Assembly: GCA_019637585.1 (NCBI GenBank) | Contig: JAHBVL010000009.1 | Location: 1,222-65,221, forward strand | Source: Thermomicrobiales bacterium | Lineage (GTDB): Bacteria > Chloroflexota > Chloroflexia > Thermomicrobiales > UBA6265 | DNA: 64,000 bases | Direction of reading: 5' to 3' | Shown here: in pieces, positions 36,099 through 42,124 of the stretch | How positions within the stretch are numbered: the first letter of the stretch is position 1 | Layout: each line of letters begins with the position of its first letter | Made by a program: the position numbers and the translations under genes | The notes under the pieces: generated by a model | What the model was told of the DNA's origin: nothing | The model's database searches: none | The model's input: only the letters and a program-made list of their open reading frames with translations

Positions 36099-39050
36099 AT
36101 GCCTTTGACTTCGACCAACGCGAATCCTGCATCCCTGATCTCCGGCAACGACGCGCCAGTCGCATCGGGCGGAGACGTATCGTCCGTGGCCACAGACTCG
36201 CTCACCGAGTCTCAGATCGACCAGTTCGCGACCCTCTATCCTTTCCCGCTCGATGGTTTTCAGCGGGATGCGATCGCCACCCTGATCGGCGACCGGTCGG
36301 TGATGGTGGCAGCGCCAACCGGCACCGGCAAGACCATTGTCGCCGAGTATGGCGTCTATAAGGCATTCGAGCGGACTGGCCGGGTCTTCTACACGACCCC
36401 GATCAAAGCGCTGTCCAACCAGAAATTCCGCGATTTGCGAGCCACGTATGGCGATCAGGTTGGGTTGCTGACGGGCGATGTCTCAGAAAACCGGGATGCC
36501 CGCGTGGTGGTGATGACGACCGAGGTGCTGCGGAACATGCTGCTGCAGTCCCCCTGGGATGTCGACGATGTCGATATCGTCATTTTCGACGAGATCCATT
36601 TTCTTGCCGATCCGGAGCGGGGAACGACCTGGGAAGAGTCGATCATCCTCTGCCCTGACCACGTTCAGCTGATCTGCCTCTCGGCCACCGTGACCAATGC
36701 CGACGAGATCGCCTCCTGGATCAGCCGCACTCACCGGCCGATTCGCCTGATTACCCATCTCGAACGGGCGGTGCCGCTGGCCCTCTACTACTTCATCGAC
36801 AAAGAGCTGCACATGGTCATCGACCACACTGGCAGCCTGATTCGCGACTTTCCCCGCACCGGCGGCGAAGCGCGGCGGCAGGTTGGGCGAGGTTCGGGTC
36901 GGCGTCGTGCCGATGCCGGCGCCGAGGGGCCGGACGAACCACAGCCGCACGAGATCATCGACTCCCTGATTGCCGGCAACATGCTCCCGGCGATCTTCTT
37001 TCTGTTCAGCCGCAATGACTGTCAGGTCTTTGCCGAGCGCTTGGCCATGATGCGGCCGAATCTGGTTTCGCCGCAGCAAGAGCGGCTCATCGACGCCACG
37101 TTGAACACCTATCTGGCGTCGCTCCGGCCGGAGGACCGCGAACTGGAGCAGGTTCAGCTGGTGACAGCTCTGGCCCGCAAGGGAATCGGTTTCCATCATG
37201 CTGGTTTGCTGCCGGTGCTCAAACAGCTGGTCGAGCTCCTCTTCTCCCGGGGGCTGATGCAGGTCGTCTTTGCCACCGATACGCTGGCCCTCGGCGTGAA
37301 TATGCCGGCCCGGACAGTGGTCATTGGCCGGATGAGCAAATGGGATGGCCGCCGGCGCCGGGTGCTGATCCCCAATGAATTCCAGCAGATGGCTGGGCGA
37401 GCGGGCCGGCGTGGGATGGACGCGTTCGGGCATGTCGTTGTGCCTTATTCGCCCTGGTTGCCCTTCCGGGAGATGCTGGAGATCGCCACCGGGCCCCTCG
37501 AACCGGTGCGTTCGGCGTTTGCCGTTCGCTACAACACTGTGCTCAATCTGTGGGATCCGCCCGACGGTGAACGGGTCCGCTCGATGCTGGAGCAGAGTCT
37601 TGCCCAGTTCCAGACCAGCCAGCGCATTCGGCTGCTGGAGGACGACGTCATCGAAATCGGCGGCGACATCGCCGGCATTCCCAAAGGTTGCCTGATCGGT
37701 CTCGATGGGGGGGACGAGCTCCTCGAAGACTATCGGATGCTGATATCGACGCTGCAGACCTCGGAGCAGAAGCTGCGGAGGCTGGAGGAAGATCGCGTTC
37801 GTGTCGAAAGCGCACTGGAGGCGGCGCCCTGGCCCGAACCGGGCCGCCAAACGCTGCGCCGCGTACTGCGCGCCGCGCCGGTGGGGTTGGTCGTTCACGA
37901 GCGCGCTCTCGGCTGGGGCATCTTCATGGGGAAGGCGCTTTCCGGCGTTGGCACGTTCCTTTTCGGTCGTGACCTCCATGTCATTGCCGAGTACCGGCAG
38001 ATCGACTACGTCACCGATGGCAAGGTTGTCGATCTGGCCTCCGCGCTCACCGAGTTGACCGCCAACGAAGACAAGGAAAAGCGCCTCTCGCTGAAGGAGT
38101 CGCGGAAGATCGCCAAACAGCTCAAGGAGATGGAGCTGCCCGATCTCGATGCGATGCGGGCAGAACACCAGGAGCGGGAGGCCGAACGGGTTGCCGCTGA
38201 GCTGGCGCGTCTCGATGAGGTTGTCGGCGAAGCGAGCAGCCAGCGGGAATCACTGATCGCCACCCGCGATCATCACCCCTGTCACCGCTGCCCGGTCCGC
38301 AAGGAGCATCGCGCGCATCTCAACCGAATCGACAAACTGGAAAAAGAGCGCAATCTCCTGCGCGACATCCTCGAGCGGGAGCAAGAAGCCGAGGATGCCC
38401 GCATCCGGGGCGTGATTCGGGGTATTCGCGAGGTGCTCGACCGGTTTGGTTACATGCATCGCGGTTACCCGACGGCCAAGGCCGATATGCTTGCCGCCGT
38501 TTTCGACAACGACGCGCTGATTCTTTGCGAGCTCGTCGATCGAGGTCTCCTCGACCGTCTGGCGCCGGAGGATCTGGCCGAAGTCTTCTCCTGGTTCAGT
38601 TTCGACCGCGACTTCCGCTATGCCAATCATCTCGTGCTCCCGAACGAGCTGCTGACCATTCGCCGCCGTCTGGAAGACATCGAGCACACGATTCTGGGTG
38701 AAGAGCGAGATCATGGGCTCTTCATCAGTGAGGGACACAATCCCAGTTTCTATGGCGCTGCCCGGGCCTGGGCCATGGGACAGACGATGATCGGCATCAC
38801 CGAGCAGATCCAGCTCTCCGAAGGTGATCTGGTGCTCACCTTCAACAAAACCATCGACCTCCTGCGGCAGGTTCGTGAGATGCTCGAAGACGTCCTCCCC
38901 GACCACCCCCTCCGCTATACCCTCCGCGAAGCCGAGCGCTTGCTGCGTCGCGACATTGTGGAGCAGTCGCTGACGCTGGGGTTTGCGCCGATTGTGGATG
39001 GGGACGAGGACTTGGGGAAGGCGGAGCAGGAAATAGGAGATGGGAGATAG
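36099..39050 (+). CDS. Ski2/HelY-like DExH RNA helicase
   Basis: APTGTGKT, PIKALSNQK, DEIH, LSAT, HHAGLLP, TDTLALGVNMPA, QMAGRAGRRG; DSHCT-like C-terminus. Confidence 0.92.
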   Translation: MPLTSTNANPASLISGNDAPVASGGDVSSVATDSLTESQIDQFATLYPFPLDGFQRDAIATLIGDRSVMVAAPTGTGKTIVAEYGVYKAFERTGRVFYTTPIKALSNQKFRDLRATYGDQVGLLTGDVSENRDARVVVMTTEVLRNMLLQSPWDVDDVDIVIFDEIHFLADPERGTTWEESIILCPDHVQLICLSATVTNADEIASWISRTHRPIRLITHLERAVPLALYYFIDKELHMVIDHTGSLIRDFPRTGGEARRQVGRGSGRRRADAGAEGPDEPQPHEIIDSLIAGNMLPAIFFLFSRNDCQVFAERLAMMRPNLVSPQQERLIDATLNTYLASLRPEDRELEQVQLVTALARKGIGFHHAGLLPVLKQLVELLFSRGLMQVVFATDTLALGVNMPARTVVIGRMSKWDGRRRRVLIPNEFQQMAGRAGRRGMDAFGHVVVPYSPWLPFREMLEIATGPLEPVRSAFAVRYNTVLNLWDPPDGERVRSMLEQSLAQFQTSQRIRLLEDDVIEIGGDIAGIPKGCLIGLDGGDELLEDYRMLISTLQTSEQKLRRLEEDRVRVESALEAAPWPEPGRQTLRRVLRAAPVGLVVHERALGWGIFMGKALSGVGTFLFGRDLHVIAEYRQIDYVTDGKVVDLASALTELTANEDKEKRLSLKESRKIAKQLKEMELPDLDAMRAEHQEREAERVAAELARLDEVVGEASSQRESLIATRDHHPCHRCPVRKEHRAHLNRIDKLEKERNLLRDILEREQEAEDARIRGVIRGIREVLDRFGYMHRGYPTAKADMLAAVFDNDALILCELVDRGLLDRLAPEDLAEVFSWFSFDRDFRYANHLVLPNELLTIRRRLEDIEHTILGEERDHGLFISEGHNPSFYGAARAWAMGQTMIGITEQIQLSEGDLVLTFNKTIDLLRQVREMLEDVLPDHPLRYTLREAERLLRRDIVEQSLTLGFAPIVDGDEDLGKAEQEIGDGR

Positions 39051-39177: not shown

Positions 39178-39480
39178 ATGATGCATCCGTCAATCGAAGC
39201 CCATCGCGATGAGATCATCCTGCTCTGCGAGGAGTATGGTGTGGCGCGGCTGGAAGTCTTCGGCTCGGCGGTGAGCGGTAAGTTCGATCCGGATCGGAGC
39301 GACGTCGACTTCCTGGTCGAGTTCGGTGACCACTTCAGGTATGGAGGACTCCTCGACTTCAAGGAAGCCCTGGAGTCGTTGCTCGGGAGAGAAGTGCAGC
39401 TCGTCTCCCGAAAATACCTTCGCAATCCCTATTTCATACGTGCTGTCGAAACGACCAAAGTTCCCCTCTATGCTGCCTAG
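39178..39480 (+). CDS. Minimal nucleotidyltransferase (MntA-type antitoxin)
   Basis: LEVFGS..SDVDFLVEF nucleotidyltransferase motif, 100 aa, LRNPYF. Confidence 0.9.
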   Translation: MMHPSIEAHRDEIILLCEEYGVARLEVFGSAVSGKFDPDRSDVDFLVEFGDHFRYGGLLDFKEALESLLGREVQLVSRKYLRNPYFIRAVETTKVPLYAA

Positions 39481-39817
39481 AAGCCCGAAGCTGCTCTGGG
39501 ATATCCACAATGCCGCAGAGTGGATCCTTGAGTGGGCCGAAGGGAAATCCGTTGCCGAGCTCTTGAACGACGACTGGTCGCGACTCAGTGTGGAGCGGCT
39601 TCTTGAAATCCTCGGTGAGGCTGCACGCAGGCTGCGAGACTACGATCCCGAAACGGCCGACAGACTGGACAGTCTCAACCAGGCGATCGCGCTGCGAAAC
39701 ATCATTGCCCACCAGTATGACGGTATCGATTACGAGCGAATCTGGGAGATCATCCAGCAGCATCTCCCTGGACTTCGGGACGAAGCTCTGGCACTCCTTG
39801 AAGAGGCGGATGTGTGA
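39470..39817 (+). CDS. HEPN/DUF86 ribonuclease toxin (HepT-type)
   Basis: VERLLEILGEAA, RNIIAHQY (RX4HXY); overlaps the MNT stop by 11 nt. Confidence 0.9.
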   Translation: MLPRSPKLLWDIHNAAEWILEWAEGKSVAELLNDDWSRLSVERLLEILGEAARRLRDYDPETADRLDSLNQAIALRNIIAHQYDGIDYERIWEIIQQHLPGLRDEALALLEEADV

Positions 39818-39867
39818 AGTGAGTGTGTGTGATCGGTGTGTCACGCGATCATAGGGAGACTCCGCAA

Positions 39868-39896
39868 TTGACAGATTTCGTTCTCGCTGATAGCGT
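39868..39896 (+). promoter_or_regulatory. Sigma70-type promoter of the T-box/dap transcript
   Basis: TTGACA-17 bp-TAGCGT, about 20 nt before T-box stem I. Confidence 0.75.
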
Positions 39897-39914
39897 ACCT
39901 ACTCAGAAGACCGC

Positions 39915-40218
39915 AAAGGCTTCGACGAGGACGAGTAACCGGCGCGAGCGGTGCAGAGAACCGCGGTAGCTGCGAAGCGGGATCGGGACCGCCGGTGAAT
40001 AAGACCTCCGAGCTTCGCTCCGAACCGTGGCGTGCCACGCAGTAGGCGGCGACGGGGGTGGGCAACCACCAATCAGCTCCCGTTACAGGGCTGCCGGATC
40101 GCGACAATGACCACAACGCCGTCCGGAAAGCGCGTGGCGATGCCAGTCGCCGCGAATTGGGGTGGTACCACGGGCCTGACGCCGCTCGTCCCCACAAGGG
40201 GAGAGCGGTTTGTGTTTT
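39915..40218 (+). ncRNA. T-box riboswitch, transcriptional, Lys specifier (AAG)
   Basis: Stem I GAGG/CCTC and ACCGGCG/CGCCGGT; AGTA/GAA loop-E; AGAGA and GCTGCGA distal motifs; specifier loop GAA-T-AAG-A (AAG at 40001-40003); stem II GAA/AGTA; CCGTTA box; T-box AATTGGGGTGGTACCACG; antiterminator TGGGG/CCCCA plus ACGGGC/GCTCGT. Confidence 0.93.
40182..40218 (+). terminator. Intrinsic terminator of the T-box leader
   Basis: CCGCTC.TCCCC-ACAA-GGGGA-GAGCGG followed by TTTGTGTTTT; overlaps the antiterminator. Confidence 0.85.
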
Positions 40219-40267
40219 CTCCGGGTTGGGCGTCACGTTCCGTTTGCTCGTAGCGCGGGAGGTGACC

Positions 40268-40327
40268 ATGGTCAGGCACGAACACCCCAATCTGGTTCCT
40301 GTGCCCGATTTCGACATCAAGCGATAG
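40268..40327 (+). CDS. Putative 19-aa small ORF (MVRHEHPNLVPVPDFDIKR)
   Basis: GGGAGGTGA Shine-Dalgarno just upstream of the ATG; between the T-box terminator and dapA. Confidence 0.4.
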   Translation: MVRHEHPNLVPVPDFDIKR

Positions 40328-40424
40328 GCGCCGCGGCATCTGCCGCCGGCGCCGGAACAGACCGGCTCGTTCCACCGGGGAACGAGCTGCCCACGTCGTT
40401 TGACCGAAATCGGAGCTCAGAATC

Positions 40425-41351
40425 ATGATCCATATCACTCCTCCATCGACCCCATTCCTCTCGGGCGCCTACACCGCGATGATCACGCCGCTGCGCGGCG
40501 ATGAGGTCGACATCCCGGCTCTGCGCCAGATGACCGACTTCCAGATCGAGCAGGGGATCAGCGGACTCGTTCCCTGCGGCACGACCGGCGAATCGGTCAC
40601 GCTCACCGACCGTGAGTACGATCTGGTCATCGCTACGGTGATCGAGGCAGCCGGAGAGCGAGTGCCGGTGATCGCAGGTACCGGCACCAATGACACGCGG
40701 CGGACCATCGAACAGACCCGGCGGGCAGAAGAGGCCGGCGCAACGGCGGCTCTCGTAGTGGTTCCCTATTACAACAAGCCGACGCAGGAGGGGATGTTCC
40801 GGCACTTCACTGCCGTCGCTGACGCCACCGATTTGCCGATCGTCCTTTACAACGTTCCCGGCCGCACCGGGGTCAATATGAGCGCGGAGACCACTTTGCG
40901 CCTGGCCGAGCACCCGAACATCGTGGCGGTGAAGGAAGCGTCGGGCAACCTGGAGCAGATCAGCGAGATCGTGATTGGCGCACCCGAGGGATTTGCCGTC
41001 CTGTCCGGGGACGACGCGTTGACACTTCCTGTCCTGAGCGTCGGCGGTCATGGCGTCATTTCGGTGACGTCGAACATCGCGCCACGAGCCGTATCGGAGC
41101 TGGTGGAACTTGGTCTGAGCGGTGACTTCGCCGCAGCCCGGACGCGCCATCAGCATCTTTTCGGGCTGAATCGAGCCATGTTCTTCGACAACAATCCGAC
41201 GGCAGTCAAGACGGCCGCGTCGATGCTGGGGCTCTGTTCGGCGGAGCTCAGGCTGCCGCAAGTCGAGATGTCGGCCGGGAACCATGCACGGCTCGGCGAG
41301 GCGATGACCGCTTTCGGACTAATGAGCGTGCAGGCGTTGGCAGCGGACTAA
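40425..41351 (+). CDS. dapA: 4-hydroxy-tetrahydrodipicolinate synthase
   Basis: CGTTGES, PYYNKP, LYNVPGRTG, AVKEASG, LSGDD, GVISVTSN. Confidence 0.96.
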   Translation: MIHITPPSTPFLSGAYTAMITPLRGDEVDIPALRQMTDFQIEQGISGLVPCGTTGESVTLTDREYDLVIATVIEAAGERVPVIAGTGTNDTRRTIEQTRRAEEAGATAALVVVPYYNKPTQEGMFRHFTAVADATDLPIVLYNVPGRTGVNMSAETTLRLAEHPNIVAVKEASGNLEQISEIVIGAPEGFAVLSGDDALTLPVLSVGGHGVISVTSNIAPRAVSELVELGLSGDFAAARTRHQHLFGLNRAMFFDNNPTAVKTAASMLGLCSAELRLPQVEMSAGNHARLGEAMTAFGLMSVQALAAD

Positions 41352-41353
41352 TC

Positions 41354-42124
41354 ATGATCAGACTTGGCATCGGTGGTGTTCAGGGACGGATGGGGCAGGC
41401 GATCTGCGCGTCGGTGGCGTCGGTGGAGGGGATCGTTGTCACGGGCGGGGTCGTGCGGGAGGCGATCGCCGCCCATGCCGGTGACGTTCTTATCTCGGAT
41501 GATCCGGCGGAGCTGGTCGGAACGATCGATGTTCTTGTCGATGTGTCGACTCCGGACGGGGTACTGCGCAACCTGGTTGCCATGCGACAGGCATCGGTGC
41601 CCTATGTCTGTGGCGTGACTGGTTTGTCCGATGAGCACCAGGACGCGCTCATGGCCGCTGCCGTTGACATCCCGGTGCTTCTCGCTCCGAACTTCAGCGT
41701 TGGTGTTGCGGCGGTGACCCGGATACTCGAGCTTGCCGCGACGCTTCTCGCCGATGCCGATGTGGAGATCGTCGAAACCCACCATCGCCGTAAACAGGAC
41801 GCGCCGTCCGGCACCGCTTTGCTCTTTGCCGATGCGATCGAACGAGCCCGTTGTGCAGCAGCACAGCGAGTGCATGGCCGAGAGGGCGTCGGTCCTCGCC
41901 AGCTAGGTGAAATGGGTATTCATTCAGTGCGTGGCGGAGGCAACTCCGGCGAGCATCGCATCCTCTTCGCCATGGATGGAGAGGAAGTCGCCATCGAGCA
42001 TCGGGCGCTGGCCCGTTCCACGTTTGCCGACGGCGCCGTCCACGCGGCCCGGTGGATCGCCGGAAAACCACCCGGCCGCTATACGATGCAGGACGTGATC
42101 GAGCTCACCGTGCCGGAGATGTAG
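41354..42124 (+). CDS. dapB: 4-hydroxy-tetrahydrodipicolinate reductase
   Basis: GRMG, APNFSVG, ETHHRRKQDAPSGTA, HSVRGG, GEH, FADGA. Confidence 0.96.
   Translation: MIRLGIGGVQGRMGQAICASVASVEGIVVTGGVVREAIAAHAGDVLISDDPAELVGTIDVLVDVSTPDGVLRNLVAMRQASVPYVCGVTGLSDEHQDALMAAAVDIPVLLAPNFSVGVAAVTRILELAATLLADADVEIVETHHRRKQDAPSGTALLFADAIERARCAAAQRVHGREGVGPRQLGEMGIHSVRGGGNSGEHRILFAMDGEEVAIEHRALARSTFADGAVHAARWIAGKPPGRYTMQDVIELTVPEM

Follow-up and report, generated by a model that had tools for sequence, protein, structure and literature searches.

Which signal controls the entry into lysine biosynthesis in the Thermomicrobiales is a question raised by the dapA-dapB operon of one bacterium of this order and by the long untranslated leader in front of it. 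In textbooks, lysine biosynthesis exemplifies control by a riboswitch that binds the metabolite itself. The operon lies in a stretch of 64,000 nucleotides (nt), here called the window, from the forward strand of contig JAHBVL010000009.1 (positions 1,222 to 65,221; GenBank assembly GCA_019637585.1), and positions below are those of the window. A sequence-only reading of this DNA had proposed that the leader is a T-box, an RNA that senses uncharged tRNA, and that it reads a lysine codon. From its sequence and predicted structure, the leader is very probably a transcriptional T-box that is specific for tRNA-Lys and controls the dapA-dapB operon. The coordinates of its parts are collected in Table 1.

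When the window was scanned with the Rfam gathering thresholds, no RNA family was reported. A scan of positions 39800-40450 with permissive filters returned a full-length match to the T-box model RF00230, the other row being a chance SNORD94 match (E 0.59). The absence of a T-box, as the default Rfam result would imply, is ruled out by this permissive scan as a threshold effect. The covariance model thus recovers the proposed element, though below the curated Rfam cut-off. The genome as a whole contains seven T-box matches at E values up to 0.01, six of them below the cut-off and the thrS leader alone above it. Five of these six, namely the dapA leader and those of trpE, ileS, argF and pheST, precede genes cognate to their specifiers, and all 14 related dapA T-box leaders likewise score under the cut-off. 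Considering that the genuine T-boxes of the genome and its relatives are mostly below the cut-off, the Rfam threshold is set too high for this lineage.

A close examination of the covariance-model alignment shows the canonical architecture. In stem I, the AGAGA bulge and GGUAGCUGCGAA match the AGAGA and the distal loop of the model and are kept in relatives; together they form the predicted platform for the tRNA elbow. The specifier loop reads GAA-U-AAG-A ahead of the stem strand CCUC, with GA motifs at its base. The T-box sequence AAUUGGGGUGGUACCACG, containing UGGU, also aligns to RF00230. The strand GCUCGUCCCC is common to the antiterminator and the terminator, so that the two helices compete. 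The terminator fold has an energy of -22.7 kcal/mol (z-score -3.6), and one of 200 shuffled sequences was as stable, compared with -14.3 kcal/mol for the antiterminator. Stems I-III, the UGGU bulge and the competing terminator of the sequence-only reading are all found in this leader. It is noted that the T-box terminator was not listed by a consensus terminator scan, which may not tolerate the bulged G in its stem.

The promoter of the same proposal, TTGACA and TAGCGT with a 17-nt spacer, was rejected by a consensus promoter scan because the -10 hexamer fits just three of six positions. The form TTGAC[A/G/T], 17-18 nt, TAnnnT is found at a similar upstream distance (within ~10 nt) in all 13 related leaders. 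We accept the promoter because the equivalent form recurs in this way, and TTGACA/TAGCGT is likely the promoter of the T-box.

In the register of the model alignment, exactly one purine stands between AAG and the stem. Five other T-boxes of the genome served as internal controls in the same register, and their specifiers are all cognate: ACC for thrS, UGG for trpE-trpG-trpD, AUC for ileS, UUC for pheS-pheT and CGC for argF. Since these five are cognate in the model register, the low-scoring matches are real and the AAG register is credible. The reading of the specifier as AAG followed by A, not as AGA, therefore stands. The genome has genes for both tRNA-Lys(CUU) and tRNA-Lys(UUU), and both end in A-CCA, with a discriminator A that fits UGGU, in agreement with the pairing suggested from the leader sequence. 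AAG makes up ~60% of the Lys codons and is the commoner of the two.

The specifier is also strongly conserved. It is AAG in all 12 alignments printed for relatives and in 28 of 28 named-genome loci, which were collected with a stem I search pattern that did not include the specifier. In an alignment of 25 stem I sequences (19 dapA leaders and six lysX leaders), AAG never changes while any of the four bases can stand in front of it, and compensatory double changes are found at eight of the 19 predicted pairs of stem I.

Table 1. Features of the dapA-dapB locus, in window coordinates.
Feature	Position	Strand	Basis or detail
Likely -35 box, TTGACA	39868..39873	+	read directly
Likely -10 box, TAGCGT, spacer 17 nt from -35	39891..39896	+	3/6 consensus positions
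T-box leader, RF00230	39913..40196	+	80.2 bits, E 9.4e-18, model positions 1-219 of 219, gathering score 93
Stem I with kink-turn, specifier loop, AGAGA bulge and distal loop	39913..40013	+	covariance-model alignment
Specifier AAG (Lys), then purine A at 40004 and stem strand CCUC	40001..40003	+	covariance-model alignment register
Stem II and IIA/B region ending CCGUUA	40014..40085	+	covariance-model alignment, 22-nt insertion
Stem III, CGUGGCG ... CGCCGCG	40133..40154	+	covariance-model alignment
Antiterminator helix, 7-nt bulge UGGUACC (UGGU 40163-40166)	40158..40194	+	fold of 40155-40196, -14.3 kcal/mol
Intrinsic terminator: 12-pair stem, one bulged G, loop ACAA, then UUUGUGUUUUC (U-tract)	40181..40219	+	fold of 40174-40222
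Predicted hairpin sequestering the Shine-Dalgarno sequence, GUCACGUUCCG pairs with CGGGAGGUGAC	40232..40266	+	-18.7 kcal/mol, 0/200 shuffles as stable
Short open reading frame, 19 codons and TAG (MVRHEHPNLVPVPDFDIKR)	40268..40327	+	start preceded by Shine-Dalgarno sequence
In-frame Lys codon AAG, two codons before the stop	40319..40321	+	AAGC invariant in 20/20 aligned sequences
GC-rich hairpin, beginning with the stop-codon G	40327..40353	+	-24.2 kcal/mol, 1/200 shuffles as stable
Third hairpin, variable part of the leader	40363..40389	+	-19.0 kcal/mol, 0/200 shuffles as stable; sequence not conserved in relatives
dapA, 4-hydroxy-tetrahydrodipicolinate synthase	40425..41351	+	Pfam DHDPS E 1.9e-87; TIGR00674 339.5 bits, cut-off 206
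dapB, 4-hydroxy-tetrahydrodipicolinate reductase	41354..42124	+	Pfam DapB_N and DapB_C; TIGR00036 213.9 bits, cut-off 122

To follow the leader beyond one genome, DapA was searched for in 40 relatives, which gave 15 orthologous dapA loci in the bacterium's own family. This survey of related dap leaders, a check named in the sequence-only reading, found a T-box upstream of dapA and on the same strand in 14 of the 15 loci (37-90 bits); at the fifteenth (L097) the contig ends inside dapA. It should be mentioned that two of the 14, L098 and L105, come from genomes marked unpublished, and that both seem to recur as the public loci L147 and L146. Neither a T-box nor a lysine riboswitch was found at E up to 0.01 in the 13 dapA loci of sister families (four families of the order), nor at E up to 0.001 in 15 dapA loci outside the order. 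The 28 named-genome leader loci carry the labels Chloroflexota, Chloroflexia, Thermomicrobiales, Sphaerobacteraceae or Nitrolancea, with one exception, 'uncultured bacterium'. DapA proteins are only 53-75% identical across the family that keeps the leader with compensatory changes, and the best DapA matches from the species collection reach only ~55% identity and belong to scattered phyla. In a maximum-likelihood tree of 42 T-box leaders, the 13 dapA leaders form one clade (support 95 in the Shimodaira-Hasegawa-like approximate likelihood ratio test, SH-aLRT). This clade joins the lysX leaders of other families weakly (SH-aLRT 81), and the lysX leaders of the own family form a separate clade at 98. 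The outgroups stand on long branches, the root and the deep forks of this tree are unreliable, and the tree does not establish the direction of any recruitment.

The following course of tRNA binding and antitermination, with the choice of isoacceptor and the physiological outcome, is inferred from these features. Transcription would start near 39903 from a promoter of the sigma-70 type. The AAG specifier of stem I would pair with the anticodon of tRNA-Lys, perfectly in the case of CUU and with a wobble in the case of UUU. If this tRNA is uncharged, its free ACCA end could pair with UGGU in the antiterminator bulge and hold the helix; the more stable terminator would then be blocked, and RNA polymerase would continue into dapA-dapB. 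With charged tRNA-Lys, the terminator is expected to form and transcription to end at the U-tract near 40219. Falling lysyl-tRNA charging would thus raise the entry into the diaminopimelate (DAP)/lysine branch.

The genes elsewhere in the genome are in keeping with a lysine target. Both lysA (439.6 bits) and dapF (212.6 bits) are encoded, each above its model cut-off, and therefore DapA and DapB feed lysine in this genome. The homocitrate synthase model remains below its cut-off in the genome (292 against 414 bits), and the upstream aminoadipate steps are without assigned genes. As for the lysine riboswitch (L-box, RF00168), its best match in the whole genome reaches 16.2 bits against a cut-off of 30 and does not lie at the dapA leader; the dapA leader itself gave no match at E up to 10, and a scan of 29 related dapA loci brought up no L-box.

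Lysine-specific T-boxes are also found at a second gene, lysX. Among the 28 named loci, dapA follows in 19, a LysX-equivalog protein in seven (307-346 bits against a cut-off of 275.6), and too little downstream DNA is available in two. The seven named lysX leaders have the AAG specifier and the stem I distal motif of the dapA leaders. In the genome studied here, the T-box with the lowest score (39 bits) immediately precedes lysX-argC/lysY. It belongs to a LysW-type cluster on contig C23 (~308072-314971; L012, L014, L155 and L156) that is split by two T-boxes, in the order Arg(CGC) T-box, argF, lysW (68 bits), an ATP-grasp gene, lysK, a second ATP-grasp paralog, Lys(AAG) T-box, lysX and argC/lysY. 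The specifiers in this cluster seem to tell the ATP-grasp ligase for arginine from the one for lysine. When the lysX loci of relatives were scanned, a T-box was present in 12 of 18 in the own family and in four of 11 in the sister families (f3 and f4). Including that of the own genome, 17 of 17 lysX T-boxes read AAG in the canonical register, with A, C or G as the next base. The antiterminator bulge is UGGU in 13 of the 17 and UGGC in four (the own L014:101-361, L157, L158 and L163), and UGGC mismatches the discriminator A73 of both tRNA-Lys genes; judged from this mismatch, the UGGC T-boxes could be tuned-down or decaying switches. In seven loci (L125, L127, L129, L131, L138, L144 and L148), the spacers of 260-400 nt between the terminator and lysX hold longer open reading frames (ORFs) of ~55-85 codons by eye. 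These are conserved within subgroups, carry KK, SKR or RKR motifs, reach the lysX start and are unlike LysW.

The leader does not end with the T-box. The gap from the terminator to the dapA ATG is ~205 nt here and 160-360 nt in relatives, and it holds a conserved module (40221-40424) common to 22 of 25 distinct related leaders; a search of the genome for its motifs found them in the dapA leader only. The statement of the sequence-only reading that the T-box lies directly upstream of dapA-dapB thus holds for the order of the elements and not for the distance, as ~205 nt separate the terminator U-tract from the dapA ATG. The module consists of a short ORF between two hairpins, one upstream over its Shine-Dalgarno (SD) sequence and one beginning at its stop codon. 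The SD region is paired at at least six of ten positions in the minimum-energy folds of 20 of 22 related leaders, several of the z-scores being weak. In L099, L101, L139 and L140, the loop of the SD hairpin is enlarged by short direct repeats with the pattern CGAGCTTCGAGC, and the stem is retained. All 22 leaders have a start, preceded by an SD sequence, that shares the frame of the conserved AAG and lies 15-29 codons from it, and the encoded peptides are unrelated between genomes except for a C-terminal [S/A]-K-[R/P/Q/L]. The short ORF is apparently translated, as we judge because its frame is kept while its length varies, unlike a purely structural RNA.

The distance from AAG to the base of the following hairpin is fixed at 6 nt across the leaders, where the ORF ends in the form AAG-CNN-TAG. 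Of 22 leaders, 16 have TAG as the codon following CNN. The other six have CAG, CTG, CGG or AAG there; their frame stops within the hairpin or beyond it, and that of L102 is still open at the dapA start. The hairpin at the stop codon shows compensatory double changes at seven of 11 predicted pairs (20 sequences). Its role as an intrinsic terminator was ruled out by the absence of a U-tract in 20 of 20 aligned leaders. A Rho loading site after it was dropped as a candidate, the mean C/(C+G) being 0.57 after and 0.56 before the hairpin, with no C-rich tract. Programmed frameshifting at AAG, suggested by the spacing of the hairpin, was rejected for lack of a slippery heptamer in the preceding codons.

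In classical leader-peptide attenuators such as trpL and hisL, a short ORF with codons of the regulated amino acid and then hairpins precede the biosynthesis genes. The dapA leader is alike in having a short ORF with a cognate codon and following hairpins 5' of biosynthesis genes; it differs in that it has one conserved codon instead of a run, no U-tract terminator, a sequestered SD sequence and a T-box upstream. Examined as an attenuator of this kind, the short ORF conserves just one Lys codon, with its frame kept in 22 of 22, and the 20 leaders show no U-tract hairpin and no conserved alternative pairing. Two sister families have ORFs upstream of dapA and no T-box. In f4 (L109-L112) there is a promoter and an ORF with the conserved peptide (V/A)PRRVYPLKR, and in f2 (L115-L117) the five-codon ORFs MKRPY, MKRPR and MKRTR follow a Shine-Dalgarno sequence; all of these ORFs contain Lys-Arg. 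A literature search for Lys-codon leader peptides together with diaminopimelate gave nothing evidently relevant by title or abstract. The most economical idea for the module would be a ribosome-dependent step keyed to the same Lys codon as the T-box specifier.

Several observations weigh against the leader being a T-box for tRNA-Lys that controls dapA-dapB. Its RF00230 score lies under the Rfam gathering threshold (80.2 against 93), so that default annotation misses it. The middle DAP steps are without assigned genes; the plant-type DapL model, the one model tried for the step from tetrahydrodipicolinate to LL-diaminopimelate, is below its cut-off in the genome (114 against 365 bits). None of the public sequencing runs contained half of the sampled words. 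Four of them gave short contigs only, in which DNA and RNA pieces alike end at 40224-40227, near the terminator, and one RNA contig from a relative spans the terminator (40147-40280); these contigs are uninformative on expression, transcript ends or habitat. With further conserved structure in the ~205 nt before dapA, the T-box may not be the sole or decisive control. The relatives are not independent, and the conservation counts overstate the support. All five tRNA-Arg genes of the genome also carry A before CCA, and the discriminator alone cannot separate Lys from Arg. Finally, a +1-frame AGA is present in most leaders, including this one and 24 of the 25 aligned stem I sequences. If AGA were the specifier, the T-box would respond to tRNA-Arg(UCU), which exists in the genome with a discriminator A compatible with UGGU; in the available part of the T-box database TBDB, AGA accounts for 0.24 of the Arg specifiers. 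It is the register, with one purine between codon and stem and cognate in the five control leaders, that decides for Lys. In addition, AGA is destroyed and AAG retained in the public loci L146, L149 and L152 and in the lysX leader L159, all with AAG-C, and in three lysX leaders of family f4 with AAG-G. Both targets, dapA-dapB and lysX, belong to lysine biosynthesis, the genome's own Arg T-box, at argF, uses CGC, and AGA makes up only ~4% of the Arg codons. A response to tRNA-Arg is therefore most improbable.

It is also highly unlikely that the leader has lost its switching function and survives as an evolutionary relic, with dapA-dapB expressed constitutively or from another promoter. The low covariance-model score would fit a relic, as would a promoter-like match at 40400-40429 that overlaps the dapA start, and the UGGC bulge of the own lysX T-box, mismatched to A73, shows that such leaders can drift. 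However, every functional part is intact in the dapA leader, which has persisted, with compensatory changes, in a family in which DapA itself has diverged widely, and the promoter-like site is a single match of a kind that shuffled sequence also yields (mean 0.2 per region). A more serious alternative would leave the T-box as the first of two lysine-dependent steps and assign a substantial share of dapA control to the short ORF and its hairpin as a second, ribosome-dependent checkpoint. The SD start in frame with an invariant AAG, in ORFs of variable length with unrelated peptides, the fixed spacing to a covarying hairpin, the pairing of the SD region and the Lys-Arg leader ORFs before dapA in sister families that have no T-box all favor such a checkpoint. 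Yet a single Lys codon is conserved, the hairpin has no U-tract and makes no obvious terminator, the composition after it (no C-rich, G-poor tract) gives no hint of Rho loading, and the loss of the stop codon in six of 22 leaders lets translation enter or cross the hairpin. The conservation could also reflect an RNA motif instead of decoding, and no mechanism was found that ties the hairpin to dapA expression. We consider the second checkpoint possible, though on balance doubtful. The same reserve applies to the more far-reaching and tentative picture of the dapA leader as a two-stage sensor of one tRNA. Here the T-box would first read uncharged tRNA-Lys; on transcripts that pass the terminator, a ribosome on the structurally gated short ORF would then reach the AAG 6 nt before the hairpin, and its dwell time there, set by the supply of charged Lys-tRNA, would make a second decision. 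A family of the Thermomicrobiales would thus have placed an RNA-based lysine sensor on top of an older ribosome-based one, and within this order of bacteria T-boxes for Arg(CGC) and Lys(AAG) would share out one LysW cluster between arginine and lysine control. A T-box specific for tRNA-Lys at dapA-dapB remains the preferred reading of the leader.

We have compared this leader with T-boxes and lysine leaders described before. In the portions available of a survey of 255 genomes (PMC3766115), the Lys T-box rows found name lysX, lysS and lysU and never a biosynthesis gene, and the summary table gives one further Lys T-box in Lactobacillaceae. For five Chloroflexi genomes the same portions list 25 T-boxes, none of them Lys, and place dapA and dapB under the lysine riboswitch. 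In the accessible part of Wels et al. (2008; PMC2494555), a Lys T-box precedes a permease (lysX there being a lysine permease), and two Dehalococcoides genomes, also Chloroflexi, have six T-boxes together, on ileS and tryptophan genes. According to the part of Foy et al. (2010; PMC2916919) at hand, lysyl-tRNA synthetase (LysRS) is under T-box control in only four species among 891 genomes, and the lysK T-box of Bacillus cereus is induced by lysine starvation and LysRS depletion and partly cross-induced by uncharged tRNA-Asn. The TBDB article (PMC7778990), in its available text, counts Lys, Glu and Gln as the least common specifiers and divides the Lys specifiers into AAA (0.87) and AAG (0.13). 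The statement in the sequence-only reading that Lys T-boxes are uncommon and mostly tied to lysS agrees with the surveys, whose available parts give LysRS genes or a permease. Our full-text literature search found no T-box paired with dapA, dihydrodipicolinate, lysX/aminoadipate or Thermomicrobium; its coverage of T-box surveys is incomplete, so that unpublished status cannot be claimed for the present leaders.

The closest likeness is to the T-boxes of Bacillota biosynthesis operons (trpEGDCFBA, ilv-leu, proBA and hom-thrCB, in the entries available from Table S2 of PMC3766115). These share with the dapA leader the stem I specifier, stems II, IIA/B and III, the UGGN bulge, the competition of terminator and antiterminator and the placement ahead of the biosynthesis operon of the cognate amino acid; the dapA leader differs in amino acid, target, sub-cut-off score and long insertions. 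The lysK/lysS T-box known from Bacillus cereus and three further species, as far as described in the accessible part of PMC2916919, proves by experiment that tRNA-Lys can drive a T-box. That element is found in Bacillota and controls lysyl-tRNA synthetase, whereas the dapA leader precedes biosynthesis genes. The L-box before dapA-dapB, for example in Clostridium cellulolyticum (available entries of Table 1 of PMC5584792 and Table S1 of PMC3766115), likewise sits on the same operon as a terminator leader that shuts it off when lysine is plentiful. In contrast to the T-box, which senses tRNA-Lys charging, the L-box senses free lysine, and the two RNAs are unrelated. A 2017 survey of the lysine riboswitch (PMC5584792) has many L-box dapA-dapB operons, and the word 'Chloroflexi' is absent from its main text, to the extent that this was available. 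The dapA leader belongs to the well-known T-box family and is notable for its rare specificity, for a target that is usually under the lysine riboswitch and for scores that escape default annotation.

The neighborhood of the operon can be described briefly. The next gene after dapB encodes an aminotransferase on the opposite strand. Just 5' of the T-box promoter, at 39178-39817, a nucleotidyltransferase (NTP_transf_2) and a HepT-like ribonuclease form a pair that resembles a toxin-antitoxin module of the MNT/HepT type. Further upstream, on the same strand as the T-box, lies a gene for a DEAD/DSHCT (Ski2/Mtr4-like) helicase of 983 residues (36099-39050).

Lys is among the rarest T-box specificities in the available parts of the surveys, and this lineage would tie lysine biosynthesis to the charging of tRNA-Lys. 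Its Lys T-boxes sit both on the entry to the DAP branch and on the lysX step of the LysW carrier-protein pathway. The family with the T-box and the sister families with leader ORFs and no T-box offer a natural comparison of two solutions. The short ORF and its hairpin, in series with the T-box, are in our view the most interesting point of the leader, which is a candidate for a system in which an RNA sensor and a ribosome-based sensor may act in series on one operon.

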